A DNA stretch of 64,000 nt from Candidatus Neptunichlamydia sp. (GCA_965233865.1 OZ247587.1:448001-512000); one strand, 5' to 3'. Shown: positions 775 through 6,019, counted from the stretch's first letter. Notes: generated from the letters alone by a model not told the origin. Numbers and translations: made by a program.

Positions 775-2349
775 TTAGTAGTGATTTTGGTTTCCCAGTC
801 CCCAATTGCATTCAGGGAAGGGTGTTCCATTAGGGATGGTGGTGAAATCATGTAGGACAATATTGTTAACAGGGGTTTCTAGTTCTCCTCTTAAACTTTT
901 GAACAAAGGCTGCATTAAAAAGCCAAAGCTATTCCTTTGGTTTTTATGGCTAAAGCTCAAAAAATCAAGGAAATTGTCAAGATGCCAGTTTCCAAAAAAA
1001 CGTCCCTCATTTGAGTCAAAACCCGTACTAAACACATAGTAGATTCTTGTCCGAAGGAAGTTAGAAACGCTAGGGGTAACCCATGAGACTGGAGTGGCAG
1101 TCACATAATACTCGGCTTTTTCAACATTTTCGGTTGTACTAAACGTCGAGGTGAGCTTTAAGCGTTTATTGCTTTCAGGTTGAGAAGCAATAACTTTTTG
1201 AATTCTCTTTGAAACATAAGGGGGGCGTACTTCAATTGCTCCACCTTCAACAACCTGTCCCTGCATGTATTTTTCTCCTCCAGTTCGAAAAAAGGTGTAC
1301 AGACCGGAAACTTCAGAAGTTCCCTTAATATTGGAGATTTTTCCAGGTCCTTTTACAAATGGAACCCCTCTAAAGTTTTTTCCCAGGCTTAGCACCAAAT
1401 CATAAATAGCGCTTTGATTGTGCTCTGCAGGATCTGGTAATACAGAATGGTTTTGATAGATTGATTCTACAAGGCGTTTATCTGCCATTTTTAAATAGAC
1501 TGCATCAAGCAATGGATGATTAACATCGCTGCGCCATTCTGGGGCTAAATAAGAGGGTCCCTCAGATGGAAAATTTGCTGGGGGAAGTACTCCAATGTCA
1601 TCTGGCTTTTGACTGCGCAGGTCTGTCCTCATGGGGAATCGCCCTAGGTTACAAAATGCCATGTTTTTTTGATCTAGACCTAGATAGACAGCTATTCTCA
1701 CGTCAGAGTAAGGGTTCTTTGGAAGATCCTCAGACGCGTTGTATTTGTATTGATCAAGGGTATTGATGATTAGCTGTAAGCTTTCTTCTTCAAGGTTCTT
1801 TGGGTCAATTGTAATTCCTCGTACCAAGTACTTTATTTTGCCAGAAGGGTCAGACATTTCATTCAAAAATGAAACCCAAGCGAGCTTTTGCTTTAAATTT
1901 CGGAACTCTCCAAGAGGTCTTTCGATTCTTAGCCAAGTAGCAGCGTACCCAAAAATTCGGTCCGTCCAAGATTGATCTCCGATATCAAACGCTTTTGTAT
2001 CAAAAACCGCTTCGATTTCTGCATATAGACTTAGTTGCAACGCCCAGTAGTAGAAATTGTCATCACGAGTGGCATCGTAGTTTTCAGTATTAAAAAAATC
2101 AAATTCAGCAGGATTTAGAATTTTGACAAGAACGCGTCTTGTATTGTAGGTTTTTGCAAATTTAACCTTATCTTCGAATAGCTTCTGTAGTTTATTGGTT
2201 TTCTCTTCTTGAGAAAGCCCGTCAAACTTCATTCCTGAATAGTCTGTCCAAACACTAAAATTGAAACGCTTAAGGGGATTCGCCTCAGCACCTGCGGTCA
2301 GCGCAAGAGCTAGACAAATCATTGAAATTAATGATTTAAATGTTTTCAT
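775..2349 (-). CDS. Hypothetical secreted protein (524 aa)
   Basis: Long ORF with a signal peptide (MKTFKSLISMICLALALTAGAEA); no family recognised. Confidence 0.8.
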   Translation of the reverse strand: MKTFKSLISMICLALALTAGAEANPLKRFNFSVWTDYSGMKFDGLSQEEKTNKLQKLFEDKVKFAKTYNTRRVLVKILNPAEFDFFNTENYDATRDDNFYYWALQLSLYAEIEAVFDTKAFDIGDQSWTDRIFGYAATWLRIERPLGEFRNLKQKLAWVSFLNEMSDPSGKIKYLVRGITIDPKNLEEESLQLIINTLDQYKYNASEDLPKNPYSDVRIAVYLGLDQKNMAFCNLGRFPMRTDLRSQKPDDIGVLPPANFPSEGPSYLAPEWRSDVNHPLLDAVYLKMADKRLVESIYQNHSVLPDPAEHNQSAIYDLVLSLGKNFRGVPFVKGPGKISNIKGTSEVSGLYTFFRTGGEKYMQGQVVEGGAIEVRPPYVSKRIQKVIASQPESNKRLKLTSTFSTTENVEKAEYYVTATPVSWVTPSVSNFLRTRIYYVFSTGFDSNEGRFFGNWHLDNFLDFLSFSHKNQRNSFGFLMQPLFKSLRGELETPVNNIVLHDFTTIPNGTPFPECNWGLGNQNHY

Positions 2350-2548
2350 AAGCTGTTATCTGCTCCTTCTTGTTTGTTTGAGGCTGTTGAAAAAGTCCAC
2401 TCCTATATCCTTTGCTCTCTTTTCGGAAAAATCATCATAAAATATGTAGAAAACGACATTCTTAATAGTCCTGTTAGGGAATTTCTTCCAAGTGAATGAA
2501 AAACCTTATTTGTCATTCCATTAAACGTCAAAACATTTTTTACAAATC

Positions 2549-2603
2549 ATGAGCCTACCCCTACAACCAACTTCCGGTAAATTGGTTGTAGGGGTAGGTT
2601 CAT
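2549..2603. repeat. 22-bp inverted repeat with 11-nt loop
   Basis: ATGAGCCTACCCCTACAACCAA (2549-2570) and TTGGTTGTAGGGGTAGGTTCAT (2582-2603) pair at 21/22, and the mismatch is a G-U pair. Confidence 0.9.
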
Positions 2604-2673
2604 CTGAGAAATAGCTAGCAAAATTATTTTTTTTTAGATACATTAAAATTGAATAGGATAGGAGGTATCACCT

Positions 2674-2898
2674 ATGAAGATAATTAACCTTATTGCACTG
2701 GTTCTTATTCTGGTAGGAGCCATTAATTGGGGTCTCTGGGGTTTTTTTCAGTTTGACCTAATCGCATGGCTTTTTGGAGGCGATGCCTCTTGGTTTTCTC
2801 GCTTAGCTTACGCTATCATTGGGATTGCAGGAATCTGGGGCTTTAGCTTTCTAGGGAAATGCAAGACTCTATGTTGCAGCTCCTGTAAGAAAGATTAA
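2674..2898 (+). CDS. DUF378 family small membrane protein
   Basis: LILVGAINWGLWGFFQFDLIAWLFG motif; GGAGG RBS. Confidence 0.9.
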   Translation: MKIINLIALVLILVGAINWGLWGFFQFDLIAWLFGGDASWFSRLAYAIIGIAGIWGFSFLGKCKTLCCSSCKKD

Positions 2899-2904
2899 TC
2901 ACAT

Positions 2905-2936
2905 AAATCGCAAGATATTCATAGCTTGCGATTTTT
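2905..2936 (+). terminator. Rho-independent terminator
   Basis: AAATCGCAAG...CTTGCGATTTTT immediately after the DUF378 stop codon. Confidence 0.7.
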
Positions 2937-3009
2937 ACTTTAAACCTTGAGTTAATCTATATTAATATCTATACTTTCCGTAAAAACATTAACACAAGGA
3001 TGGCATAAC

Positions 3010-3519
3010 ATGAGAGATTATTTTTTAAATGTCCGGGGTGCTTATAGGCAGCCGATCGAACAATTCTTTAACAGCGTAAAATCTAGTTCAGCCGTTAAAA
3101 AATCCGACAGCGATGTACATGACCTTGGAATGAATACTCTGAAACTCTGTGCGCTTCCATTCCTTACAGCATCCGCATATATTATCGGGAAGGTTGCTTA
3201 TACCAGGCAGTTTTCTTACAAAGGGCTTCTTTTAGCAGGCACAACATTTTCAATAGGTCACGACCTGTCAAAAATAGGTGATGTTTATGACAAAGAATTT
3301 TTCATCTGCCAAAAAAAGGATAAAAAACCAGACGTTCTGATAGATGCTCTTACTTGGATTATTCCAAAGTTTATAAGTACTGAGAGTGCTAATGAAGATA
3401 CTGCTGAGAGTGCTAATGAAAATCAGGGGAATAGTATTAAGTCCAAGGTAACTGAAGCTCTTGATGGGACTATTGCTGAAAACATCGAACTTGTTGTAAC
3501 TGATTTTATTTTGGGATAA
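3010..3519 (+). CDS. Hypothetical protein with two hydrophobic stretches (possible Inc-like effector)
   Basis: 169-aa ORF with AAGGA RBS and an internal 24-nt-period repeat encoding ESANEDTAESANEN. Confidence 0.65.
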   Translation: MRDYFLNVRGAYRQPIEQFFNSVKSSSAVKKSDSDVHDLGMNTLKLCALPFLTASAYIIGKVAYTRQFSYKGLLLAGTTFSIGHDLSKIGDVYDKEFFICQKKDKKPDVLIDALTWIIPKFISTESANEDTAESANENQGNSIKSKVTEALDGTIAENIELVVTDFILG

Positions 3520-3792
3520 AGAATCATTTTGCATTAAATTCTAGGATCTTGTAGCAATTTCCAGTGTAATAACAAGGTCCTATGCTTGAAAAGACAAAGA
3601 TTGCCATTCGGTTTAAAATTCTAAACCTTTTCTGGGTTAAGCTAGTTCTGCAGTATGATGCGCATAAAGACAATGAATCATTTTCCTGAGTGCGTCGTGC
3701 GCATTCGAGTTGGGCCTAAGCGTCTTTGTGAGAGTGGTTATAATTTTCATTACCCAAACTTCTGCCAACCTCTAGAGCATGTAACATAACTC

Positions 3793-3821
3793 TTGCATCA
3801 ATTTTTTTTGTGTTGTACACT
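3793..3821 (+). promoter_or_regulatory. sigma66/sigma70-type promoter of the brnQ leader
   Basis: TTGCAT (3793-3798), 17-bp spacer, TACACT (3816-3821). Confidence 0.6.
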
Positions 3822-3831
3822 CTGCGGTACT

Positions 3832-3891
3832 ATGGAAACAATAAAAAACATACACCTTATTTCCTCTCGAGTAATTATTGTGCGCCCCTAG
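3832..3891 (+). CDS. Candidate branched-chain amino acid leader peptide METIKNIHLISSRVIIVRP
   Basis: 19-codon uORF with 8 Ile/Val/Leu codons including VIIV; the stop codon lies in a GC hairpin (3879-3898); 63 nt upstream of brnQ. Confidence 0.65.
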   Translation: METIKNIHLISSRVIIVRP

Positions 3892-3954
3892 GCGCATATA
3901 AATCCCCCCCCATCCAGAATATAGTACTATTAATTCGAAAATTAAGGAAAAAAA

Positions 3955-5100
3955 GTGAATAAATTAAAAAGCACATCATTATCAACAGGCCTTGCAATGT
4001 TCTCCATGTTTTTCGGAGCAGGAAATATTACATTCCCTCTGATTATTGGGCAGACTGTTGAAGGGGGATTGATATGGGCGCTACTCGGTCTTGTTTTGAC
4101 AGCTATATTGATTCCATTTAGTGGTTTATTATCTATCAGTCTCTATGAAGGAGACTATGAAAGTTTCTTCAGCCGGATTGGCAAAGGACCCGGCCTTTTT
4201 GTCATCATACTTTTGCTTGCTATGATTGGTCCTTTCGGGGGAATTCCCCGTTGTATTACGCTGACCTATTCAACTCTTAAAGTCTATTTCAGTGGGATGC
4301 ACCTCCTAACCTTTAGCTTACTTAGCTGCTTGATTGTCTTCCTCTTCTCCTGGAAAAAGAACAGAATCTTAGACCTTATCGGTTACGTTTTATCTCCTAT
4401 ACTAGTCCTCTTTCTGCTCGTGATCATCATCAAAGGAATATTCTTTTCAAATTCAGATCCTGTGGGATCGTCTCATGTAGCGCATCCTTTCTTTTATGGG
4501 CTAAGAGAAGGATATAATACTATGGATCTTCTAGCGGCCTTCTTTTTCTCCTCTCTTATTTATAACAAACTTAAGGAGCAGCAAGGGGAGCGAAAAAACG
4601 TTTTAATCCCCGTATTTAAGGCGAGCCTGATTGGTGCAGGTCTTTTGAGTATGATCTATATTGGGTTTAGCTACGTTGCGGCCTACCATAGTATAGCCCT
4701 TGATGGCACTGGGGCTGACCAACTTCTTGGCCGTATTGGTCAAATCGTTTTAGGGCAACATGCAGGCCTTGTTGTGTGCATGTCGATTGCACTAACTTGT
4801 TTAACTACAGCAATTGCATTAACGGTTGTTTGTGCTGAGTTTTTGCAAAGGCGCATCACAAAGGGACGCTTGTCATATGAGTGGTCACTTGTGGCAATTT
4901 TGGTTGTAACCGTTCTTGTTTCAACACTCAAATTCACGGGGATTGTTAAACTCTTGGCTCCTGTTTTGGAAGTTGTTTATCCCTCAATGCTGGTTCTTTG
5001 TGTGATGAATGTTTTTCATAAGCTCTTGAACTATCAACCAGTTAAAGTTCCAGTTTTTGTTACACTTTTCTTAGTGCTCTATTTCCAGTACTTTGTATAA
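3955..5100 (+). CDS. brnQ: Branched-chain amino acid transport system II carrier protein
   Basis: GLAMFSMFFGAGNITFP, IGPFGGIPR, GYNTMDLLAAFFF and LTCLTTAIAL motifs. Confidence 0.95.
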   Translation: MNKLKSTSLSTGLAMFSMFFGAGNITFPLIIGQTVEGGLIWALLGLVLTAILIPFSGLLSISLYEGDYESFFSRIGKGPGLFVIILLLAMIGPFGGIPRCITLTYSTLKVYFSGMHLLTFSLLSCLIVFLFSWKKNRILDLIGYVLSPILVLFLLVIIIKGIFFSNSDPVGSSHVAHPFFYGLREGYNTMDLLAAFFFSSLIYNKLKEQQGERKNVLIPVFKASLIGAGLLSMIYIGFSYVAAYHSIALDGTGADQLLGRIGQIVLGQHAGLVVCMSIALTCLTTAIALTVVCAEFLQRRITKGRLSYEWSLVAILVVTVLVSTLKFTGIVKLLAPVLEVVYPSMLVLCVMNVFHKLLNYQPVKVPVFVTLFLVLYFQYFV

Positions 5101-5386
5101 ATAGTCATCATTTTTCAACTCTCGATGTTCTCTTCGGAAACTGCAATTACAGAACAAATGTTACACTACCCTTTGTCAAAATCTAAGTGGCCTAGAAGGA
5201 GGACGTAAGAGAGTATTCAAACTCTCTTAGATTTGCCTTCCGTGGAGCTACTAGTGCCCTTTATTGCTATATGTGGAAAATATTTCCTCTTGTGTAATTA
5301 ATTTTTTCAATCTAGATTTAAAGATGAGGGCGGCAAATTGAGCAGGGAACTTGATTTTTTGCCTTTCATCAATAGGAGGAGGGGAA

Positions 5387-6019
5387 ATGAAAGAGAAATT
5401 AGGACTTAATCCTTGGCTCAGTATCTGGGTTAAGCCTAGAGAGACAATACGAGCGCTAGTCGATTATAATGTAAATTTTCGCTTTATTGTGATGTGTGCA
5501 ATTTATGGCATTTTGTATATGTTGCAAACAAGTCAGTTTTTGGCACTTGGGCGATCTTCGTCCTTGCTGGTTATTATTATCCTATCAGTAGTTTTAGCTA
5601 TTCCAGCAGGCTATATTGTTTTCAATATATCGAGCTTTTTTGCATTTCTGCTCGGAAAACTTATTAAGGGAAAGGGCTCATTTAAACAAGTCCGAACGGT
5701 AACTTATTGGTCCACAGTTCCTATGGTTGTGACGCTTTTGTTTTGGGTTTTTTGTATCATTATCAATGGCAACAGCTTGTTTGTTCCAGGCTACGAAAAA
5801 AGCCTCGTTGGATCAGCTGCGCTCATTAATCTTGTCATAGGCATTGCCCAGTTTGTTTTAGCGATCTGGGGATTGATTATTTATTTACATGCATTAGGGG
5901 AAGTGCAAGGGTTTTCAGTGTGGATGGCGCTGCTAAATGCTTTTTTAGCAGGGCTTTCGCTTTTTATCCTTATTTTCCTCGTTAGTTGGGGTGTTGCTAC
6001 TCTAACACACGTAACTTAA
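5387..6019 (+). CDS. YIP1 family membrane protein
   Basis: NPWLSIWVKPRETIR N-terminus and about 5 TM segments; ATG at 5387 follows GGAGG. Confidence 0.8.
   Translation: MKEKLGLNPWLSIWVKPRETIRALVDYNVNFRFIVMCAIYGILYMLQTSQFLALGRSSSLLVIIILSVVLAIPAGYIVFNISSFFAFLLGKLIKGKGSFKQVRTVTYWSTVPMVVTLLFWVFCIIINGNSLFVPGYEKSLVGSAALINLVIGIAQFVLAIWGLIIYLHALGEVQGFSVWMALLNAFLAGLSLFILIFLVSWGVATLTHVT

Follow-up and report, generated by a model that had tools for sequence, protein, structure and literature searches.

The stretch of DNA considered here, referred to throughout as the window, comprises 64,000 nucleotides (nt) of Candidatus Neptunichlamydia sp. (GCA_965233865.1 OZ247587.1:448001-512000), and all positions are counted from its first letter. 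It stems from a genome that consists of one contig and is 96% complete. Near the beginning of the window lies brnQ, the structural gene for a branched-chain amino acid carrier of 381 residues, which is single-copy in this genome and typical of its clade, the open frames of most relatives coding for 381 to 404 residues. Upstream of brnQ, a putative promoter is followed by a leader open reading frame (ORF) of 19 codons, which include 5 Ile (two of them ATA), 2 Val, and 1 Leu, by a GC-rich hairpin of 8 pairs (one of them G-U), whose loop and 3' arm are straddled by the TAG stop codon of the ORF, and by a spacer rich in C and poor in G (Table 1). An earlier note, made from the window alone, had read this arrangement as an attenuator that senses isoleucine, valine, and leucine; the positions and sequences that it gave for promoter, ORF, hairpin, C8 run, and brnQ start are all exact on re-check, and its count of branched-chain codons is confirmed. 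The core of its interpretation, a sensor ORF, is backed by the conservation of the ORF, its frame, its codons, and its link to brnQ, whereas the hairpin barely covaries and the pairing with the ribosome-binding site is not general. That a translated Ile/Val/Leu-rich leader ORF controls brnQ is strongly supported by the comparison of related genomes.

Table 1. Coordinates of the brnQ leader region in the window.
Feature	Position	Strand	Remarks
-35 box TTGCAT	3793-3798	+	sequence
-10 box TACACT	3816-3821	+	17-nt spacer after -35 box
putative transcription start (A)	3829	+	3 nt before ATG of leader ORF, 8 nt past -10 box
leader ORF METIKNIHLISSRVIIVRP and stop, 19 codons	3832-3891	+	ATG 10 nt past -10 box
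CTTATTTCCT in leader ORF	3856-3865	+	sequence
candidate control codons Val-Ile-Ile-Val	3871-3882	+	abut and enter 5' arm of hairpin
hairpin TGTGCGCC-CCTA-GGCGCATA	3879-3898	+	GC-rich, stop codon in loop
C-rich, G-poor rut-like spacer	3899-3940	+	12 C, 3 G in 42 nt
C8 run	3904-3911	+	within rut-like spacer
brnQ Shine-Dalgarno sequence AAGGAA	3944-3949	+	sequence
brnQ, LIV-II branched-chain amino acid carrier	3955-5100	+	GTG start; Pfam PF05525, E 4e-69

The closest named relatives of the source organism are metagenome-assembled genomes labelled Simkaniaceae. Orthologs of brnQ are present in 16 of 16 other genomes of the genus, G008 having fragments only, and the full layout is kept at 13 of the 16 usable loci of the genus, the window included, as well as in L017, a locus from another genus of the family. 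It consists of CTTGCnT, 17 nt, TAnnnT, about 10 nt, and ATGGAA, which opens the 19-codon ORF, followed by the hairpin, whose loop holds the stop codon, a run of C, a spacer rich in A and U, and AAGGAAAAAAA ahead of a GTG, ATG, or TTG start codon. CTTGCnT occurs at the same place in the 13 leader-bearing loci of the genus and in L014; the -10 box takes the forms TATACT, TAAAAT, and TACAAT among relatives and lies about 10 nt from the ATG of the leader ORF in 11 of 12 scored family leaders (11 nt in L011). A purine stands 3 nt before this ATG in 13 of 14 aligned family leaders, and it is the likely transcription start, corresponding to the A at 3829 in the window. The encoded peptides include MEPVKNVHLISTRVIIVRL, MESLKKIILISVRVNIVRQ, MENLKLAQILSIQVIIVRL, and MVKTATLSLISTLLIIARP. 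Among the same 14 leaders the ORF has 19 codons in 13, and 22 in L015, where a 1-nt deletion and a 10-nt insertion jointly restore the reading frame; unlike the ORF, the noncoding spacer between its stop codon and brnQ is variable in length (54 to 68 nt). Once relatives are compared in this way, the layout proves to be far more than chance would produce.

Beyond the family, a scan for the hairpin only across 96 distinct brnQ-homolog loci identified 28 leaders, and L016, added by hand, brought them to 29. From 11 leaders of other families, a covariance model of the hairpin region (R1) was made; when 150 genomes of the order were searched with it, there were 20 matches, in 20 genomes from many families. 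Nineteen of these 20 matches lie 31-128 nt upstream of a brnQ homolog and the single one that does not precede brnQ is the weakest (E 0.008). R1 is insensitive: with the strict filters of the genome search it did not pick up the genus of the window, and on the loci it matched this genus weakly (17.9-29.5 bits); because of this insensitivity the 130 of 150 genomes without a match are not evidence of absence. After removal of duplicates, there are at least 45 distinct leader loci from 15 or more chlamydial families, and the conserved I/V/L-rich ORF upstream of brnQ in relatives, which the earlier note had named as a check, was thus found. Judging from this distribution, the element is real and widely conserved. 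In L006, L011, and L017 the gene upstream is a different one and the leader stays with brnQ, and it therefore belongs to brnQ; a role of the hairpin as terminator of the upstream gene, which is also countered by the 19 of 20 genome-wide matches that precede brnQ, was rejected. R1 found no match near ilvD (best E 2.8) at 8 loci of 7 genomes with flanks of 1.5 kb, outside of which the operon starts possibly lie. Two further observations concern individual loci. In L075, the leader model matches once more behind the first brnQ copy (2601-2669), perhaps marking a second leader before a tandem gene. In L018 and L054, about 250 nt upstream of brnQ, a leader-peptide-like ORF of 13 codons (MLSFINFSVIVRF and stop) without hairpin is followed by CCCC and may be a decayed leader.

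Composition played no part in the choice of the leader loci, which were picked for their hairpin and ORF. The stem sets the frame (xxG CGC in 42 leaders, offset by one in the other 3), and in all 45 this frame stays open over 12 codons or more. Over the last 12 codons before the hairpin, Ile accounts for 17.8%, Leu for 17.4%, and Val for 21.7%, i.e., 57% together, compared with an Ile/Leu/Val share of 23.7% in the proteome of the window genome, and at positions -4 to -1 before the CGC codon the share amounts to 76, 60, 91, and 98%. In 29 leaders, the frame of the ORF has a mean of 6.9 Ile/Leu/Val among 13 codons and no stops, the two other frames having 3.7 and 1.6, with 22 and 3 stops. The enrichment in cognate codons known from classical attenuators is thus present, and so is a short ORF in the 5' leader, with conserved frame and length and with start signals, its translation being predicted. 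A sequence-specific arrest peptide does not seem to be what these leaders encode, for their peptides, 14 to about 57 residues long, differ widely, and only composition and the stem-encoded V-R are kept, the C-terminus reading (I/L/V)(I/L/V)-V-R across families.

Start signals of the leader ORF point to a leaderless or nearly leaderless mRNA. Of 44 leaders, 31 have a -10-like TAnnnT whose end is 4-12 nt upstream of an in-frame ATG, and 24 of the 44 also have a TTG at -35; for random ATGs of the window genome the corresponding values are 13.5% and 3.3%. (The script used gave L006 a wrong frame and dropped L009, both of which carry a 19-codon ORF in the family alignment.) In many other families the gap between -10 box and ATG is 6-7 nt, a true leaderless start, and three leaders have a Shine-Dalgarno (SD) sequence instead of this layout. 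The promoter of the window matches 7 of 12 consensus positions. In two species of the genus (L010 and L012), in which the stretch of about 40 nt before brnQ holds no leader, the ATG of brnQ itself lies 6 nt past the -10 box (TAAAAT or TAGAAT), a leaderless position that speaks for a real promoter and for the use of leaderless initiation.

The hairpin is unusually conserved in sequence. Its GCGC core occurs in all aligned leaders, 99% of the alignment cells are paired, two pairs are unchanged in 41 of 41 rows, and U-A gives way to U-G in 15 rows. Pair counts were not taken from MAFFT alignments of all leaders, which set two types of stem out of register. In other families the stem is GUGCGC-NNN-GCGCAC, and their ORFs stop in the loop (e.g., MKKNLFIPILILVR) or 1-2 codons past the stem (e.g., those ending in LIVVRKAHI); overall, 28 of the 45 leaders have the stop codon ahead of the 3' core, in the loop, and the other 17 have it no more than 15 nt behind this core. 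The stem ranges from 5 to 9 pairs and the loop from 3 to 8 nt, and the two GCGC cores are not at a constant distance. Among the family leaders no second conserved hairpin was found in the spacer. Between the stem and the C-rich tract there is a stretch of 6-8 nt made up of A and U only (AUAUAAAU, GAUAAU, AUAUAA; 3896-3903 in the window), which is retained even in leaders where it is not the stop codon, and most family leaders have 7-8 nt between the GC core and the C run.

The C-rich, rut-like tract that the earlier note had pointed out is conserved as well. Over the first 30 nt past the hairpin, 29 of 29 leaders have more C than G, with 6 or more C and no more than 3 G in 26 of them. Pooled leader spacers contain 22% C and 10.5% G, compared with 17% C and 18% G in 1031 background upstream segments, only 0.5% of which are as skewed as the spacer of the window. 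The composition is that of rut sites in Rho attenuators which depend on an upstream ORF (uORF), and a rho gene is present in the window genome (691 bits, over the cut-off). Termination of the brnQ leader by Rho is therefore plausible on compositional grounds and would be the most likely readout.

What is directly established is that the anatomy is conserved, that the codons are biased, that the leader is linked to brnQ exclusively, that a rho gene is present, and that ilvC and ilvD were not found. The best explanation, to which we give a probability of about 65%, is a brnQ leader that is sensed by the ribosome and controlled by tRNA charging. Transcription would begin about 3 nt before the ATG at 3832, so that the 19-codon ORF would be read from a nearly leaderless mRNA. 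The hungry codons would be the last ones before the hairpin, Val-Ile-Ile-Val in the window and runs of Val, Ile, or Leu elsewhere. If charged Ile, Val, or Leu tRNA became scarce, the ribosome would stall on these codons and cover the 5' arm of the hairpin as well as the 3' part of the pyrimidine-rich leader, thereby blocking the hairpin; the stall might also hinder the loading of Rho on the C-rich tract, or a termination driven by the hairpin, and polymerase would enter brnQ. At good supply, the ribosome would reach the stop codon in the hairpin and depart, the hairpin would close, and the bare C-rich RNA would be open to Rho, such that transcription would end before or early in brnQ. Given a sensor, we would put the chances of Rho termination at even, those of a factor-independent termination or pausing at the hairpin and those of an effect on brnQ translation at one in five each, and those of any other readout at one in ten.

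Several points weigh against this reading. The evidence from the window by itself is weak: 8 branched-chain codons among 19 are not significant alone, the genome being AT-rich, and its promoter is not among the calls listed by a promoter scanner. In the window's genus a 5' untranslated region of 3 nt precedes the ORF, which is not a truly leaderless start, and in three species of this genus (L010, L012, and L014) leader ORF and hairpin are missing, L014 having kept the promoter and a leader of about 60 nt without ORF. One of the alternative frames still reaches 28% Ile/Leu/Val, as U-rich sequence easily gives hydrophobic codons. The earlier note had hoped for a covarying hairpin; the hairpin is conserved, but covariation is almost absent, with one compensatory pair, matched by 32 of 500 shuffles, in an alignment fitted to the model, 3 rows of which are partial and antisense. 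A pair of antiterminator and terminator was not seen in the consensus fold of 14 leaders, which consists of the stop-codon hairpin and a weak 5-bp helix at the 5' end. A terminator scanner calls no intrinsic terminator at 3879-3911, where the earlier note had seen no U-tract, and only 4 of 45 leaders have a U-tract after the stem (5 or more T within 8 nt, 0-2 nt away from it). The compositional skew of the window is moderate, its C/G ratio over 78 nt reaching at most 2.6, which is the 98th percentile for this genome. With the ribosome stalled at codons 14-17, the RNA would be covered approximately to the loop, short of the C run at 3904, and a shielding of the rut site by the stalled ribosome is not obvious. 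The terminating ribosome melts the hairpin as well, and the model therefore needs an assumption about timing. Finally, transcription start, translation of the ORF, stalling, direction of regulation, readout, and termination are all steps that we infer.

Some rival explanations keep the ORF and change what is read from it. In a translational attenuation like that of ermC, the pyrimidine stretch CUUAUUUCCU of the ORF would pair with the SD and start codon of brnQ, a stall would free the SD, and Rho polarity would at most be secondary. Such a pairing, which the earlier note had considered as a means of releasing the ribosome-binding site, is predicted in the window and its close relatives: the minimum free energy fold of the window (-21.2 kcal/mol, z -2.6, equalled by 3 of 200 shuffles) pairs 3853-3871 with the SD/GUG region, and in 8 of 14 family leaders (L001-L005, L007, L008, and L017) the GGA of the SD pairs with ORF codons 8-11 at high probability. 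It is not general, however, since in L006, L009, L011, and L013 UUUCC pairs with the AUGGAA at the 5' end instead, a helix that the consensus fold also prefers over SD pairing. When the footprint of a stalled ribosome is masked, no more than 8 of 44 leaders show a rise of over 0.15 in the unpaired probability of the SD (mean 0.43 to 0.49; window 0.56 to 0.61), and a readout through the ribosome-binding site is therefore ranked below a transcriptional one. A purine-rich SD meets pyrimidine partners by chance, and SD sequestration explains neither the hairpin nor the C-rich tract, so that we hold it to be unlikely. We consider it slightly less likely still that the ORF is translated without sensing tRNA charging, serving ribosome entry on a leaderless mRNA, stabilisation of the mRNA, or a fixed low level of brnQ through constitutive partial termination. 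The leaderless or near-leaderless layout, the leaderless position of brnQ itself in two species, and the lack of alternative structures in the consensus fold would all suit such an ORF, but neither the share of Ile/Leu/Val over the last 12 codons and the last two (57% and 91-98%) across otherwise divergent families nor the link to a branched-chain carrier in 19 of 20 genome-wide matches would be explained by it.

The peptide itself might be the functional product, either as a small hydrophobic partner of BrnQ or as an arrest peptide that, within the exit tunnel, senses free branched-chain amino acids as TnaC does tryptophan. This would be in line with the conserved C-terminus and with the stop codon adjoining a rut-like tract, as it does in tnaC and speFL (PMC12360218). 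Yet beyond the stem-fixed V-R it is composition and not sequence that is kept, at widely differing lengths; Arg and Asn break the hydrophobic stretch in the window's genus, which makes it unlike a membrane span, and an importer that is induced when its substrate is plentiful makes little sense, ilvC and ilvD not having been found. A functional peptide thus seems very improbable. The least probable reading of all is that GTGCGC...GCGCAC is read sequence-specifically and the ORF is secondary, the stem being recognised either as a DNA operator, with a repressor forming a roadblock, or as an RNA hairpin, by a regulatory protein. The conservation of the stem is indeed unusual, with almost no compensatory change, and as DNA it is palindromic. 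However, the spacing of the TGCGC half-sites varies (3, 5, 6, 7, or 8 nt) and G-U pairs occur, which fits an RNA structure and not a dimeric operator, and the DNA operator was rejected on these grounds; moreover, the loop sequence is not conserved, and 45 of 45 leaders preserve the reading frame and the place of the stop codon with respect to the stem, for which an operator would have no need. A protein that binds the RNA may still be involved.

Going on with the ribosome-sensed leader as the preferred reading, one might see in it a minimal ancient attenuator, common to most environmental chlamydial families and a direct gauge of the host's branched-chain supply. A leaderless ORF would carry its hungry codons one footprint before a single invariant hairpin, the ribosome would be the sole antiterminator, and Rho or an unknown reader of the hairpin would be the effector. 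We offer this wider view tentatively and regard it as possible rather than probable. That GUGCGC/GCGCAC is nearly invariant in 15 or more families may point to a specific partner.

No second copy of the element was found in the window genome by a pattern search allowing up to 3 mismatches, which gave this site and one chance match with 3 mismatches. In an Rfam scan of 2300-5400 (E up to 10), which takes in T-boxes, riboswitches, and the Leu, Thr, His, and Trp leaders, 13 matches were listed; they all lie outside 3793-3957 and fall short of their gathering scores. Among the sequencing runs listed as containing the stretch there is none of RNA, only three DNA-type runs of one study. As for the neighbouring genes, a remnant of a YfcH-like epimerase gene, comprising the last 49 codons or so (the DUF1731 part), lies upstream of the brnQ promoter (3682-3786, + strand). 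The gene is intact in relatives (Epimerase and DUF1731), and the window genome has no other copy; at the position of the relatives' epimerase gene, the window has an ORF of 169 residues without Pfam match (3010-3519, + strand). A gene for a small DUF378 membrane protein is situated about 1 kb upstream of brnQ in the window (2674-2898, + strand) and directly upstream of brnQ in L020, from another genus of the same family (1223-1429), and the proximity of the two genes may be a conserved neighbourhood.

Regarding the biology, ilvC and ilvD were not found in the window genome (one contig, 96% complete), and ilvD was found in 7 of the order's 401 genomes and in none of the 38 from the family. With ilvC and ilvD not found and brnQ single-copy, the cell therefore depends on import. 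BrnQ is a known branched-chain amino acid carrier of chlamydiae (Braun et al., 2008, as cited in PMC6123439). Chlamydiae rely on the host for branched-chain amino acids, and how they sense a shortage of amino acids is poorly understood. Pathogenic chlamydial species are not known to have the usual stringent response. A leader peptide common to many families would be a direct and testable amino-acid sensor. Work on Chlamydia trachomatis is reported to point to codon-dependent ribosome stalling and to Rho (PMC7755916 and PMC8670374). An attenuator with one hairpin, a leaderless start, and no U-tract would add to the range of designs known for ribosome-mediated attenuation, and annotators would gain a small ORF and a cis-regulatory RNA that are in no current library. 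The earlier note was not aware of a description for chlamydial brnQ, and a literature search likewise found none; the main text and one supplement of PMC8632094 contain nothing on such a leader. The brnQ leader is apparently undescribed.

Among known systems, the leaders of enterobacteria are close in signal. Like ilvL (ahead of ilvGMEDA), ivbL (ahead of ilvBN), and leuL, the brnQ leader has a short Ile/Val/Leu-rich ORF before genes concerned with the same amino acids, and in those leaders the speed of translation is read out on the same transcript, as is proposed for brnQ. For comparison, ilvL and ivbL encode 32 residues each, of which 15 and 11 are branched-chain ones (PMC6123439). Unlike the brnQ leader, whose target is a transporter, the enterobacterial leaders control biosynthesis genes. 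They have alternative 1:2, 2:3, and 3:4 hairpins, an intrinsic terminator with U-tract, and an SD, whereas the brnQ leader has one hairpin, no antiterminator, mostly no U-tract, and a leaderless or nearly leaderless start, and matches no Rfam family. In Firmicutes, brnQ is among the transporters regulated by T-boxes (PMC2494555), such that the regulated gene and the signal, uncharged tRNA, would be the same; T-box RNAs, however, bind tRNA directly and without a leader peptide, and no T-box match was found at the element in the Rfam scan of the window. Leaderless uORF attenuators with poly-cysteine runs are reported for mycobacteria (10.1101/834739). Like the brnQ leader, they have a leaderless short ORF with a codon run, there for a single amino acid, and the genes controlled downstream belong to the metabolism of that amino acid; they differ in phylum, amino acid, and target genes.

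Close in the proposed readout are the uORF-dependent Rho attenuators tnaC-tnaAB, speFL-speF, and cruR-bfrG, in which, as set out in PMC12360218, the rut site is next to the end of the uORF, a ribosome held there keeps Rho off, and transporters (tnaB, bfrG) are found downstream. The brnQ leader resembles them in having an ORF followed by a C-rich, G-poor tract, in a genome that encodes Rho. Their uORFs, unlike the brnQ leader, code for arrest peptides of specific sequence, which respond to a free ligand with the ribosome at the stop codon, and the brnQ leader, unlike them, has a conserved hairpin over the stop codon. Only codon composition is conserved in the brnQ leader, which points to tRNA charging as the signal. 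The proposed brnQ leader would combine a signal of the ilvL type with a readout of the tnaC, speFL, and cruR type.

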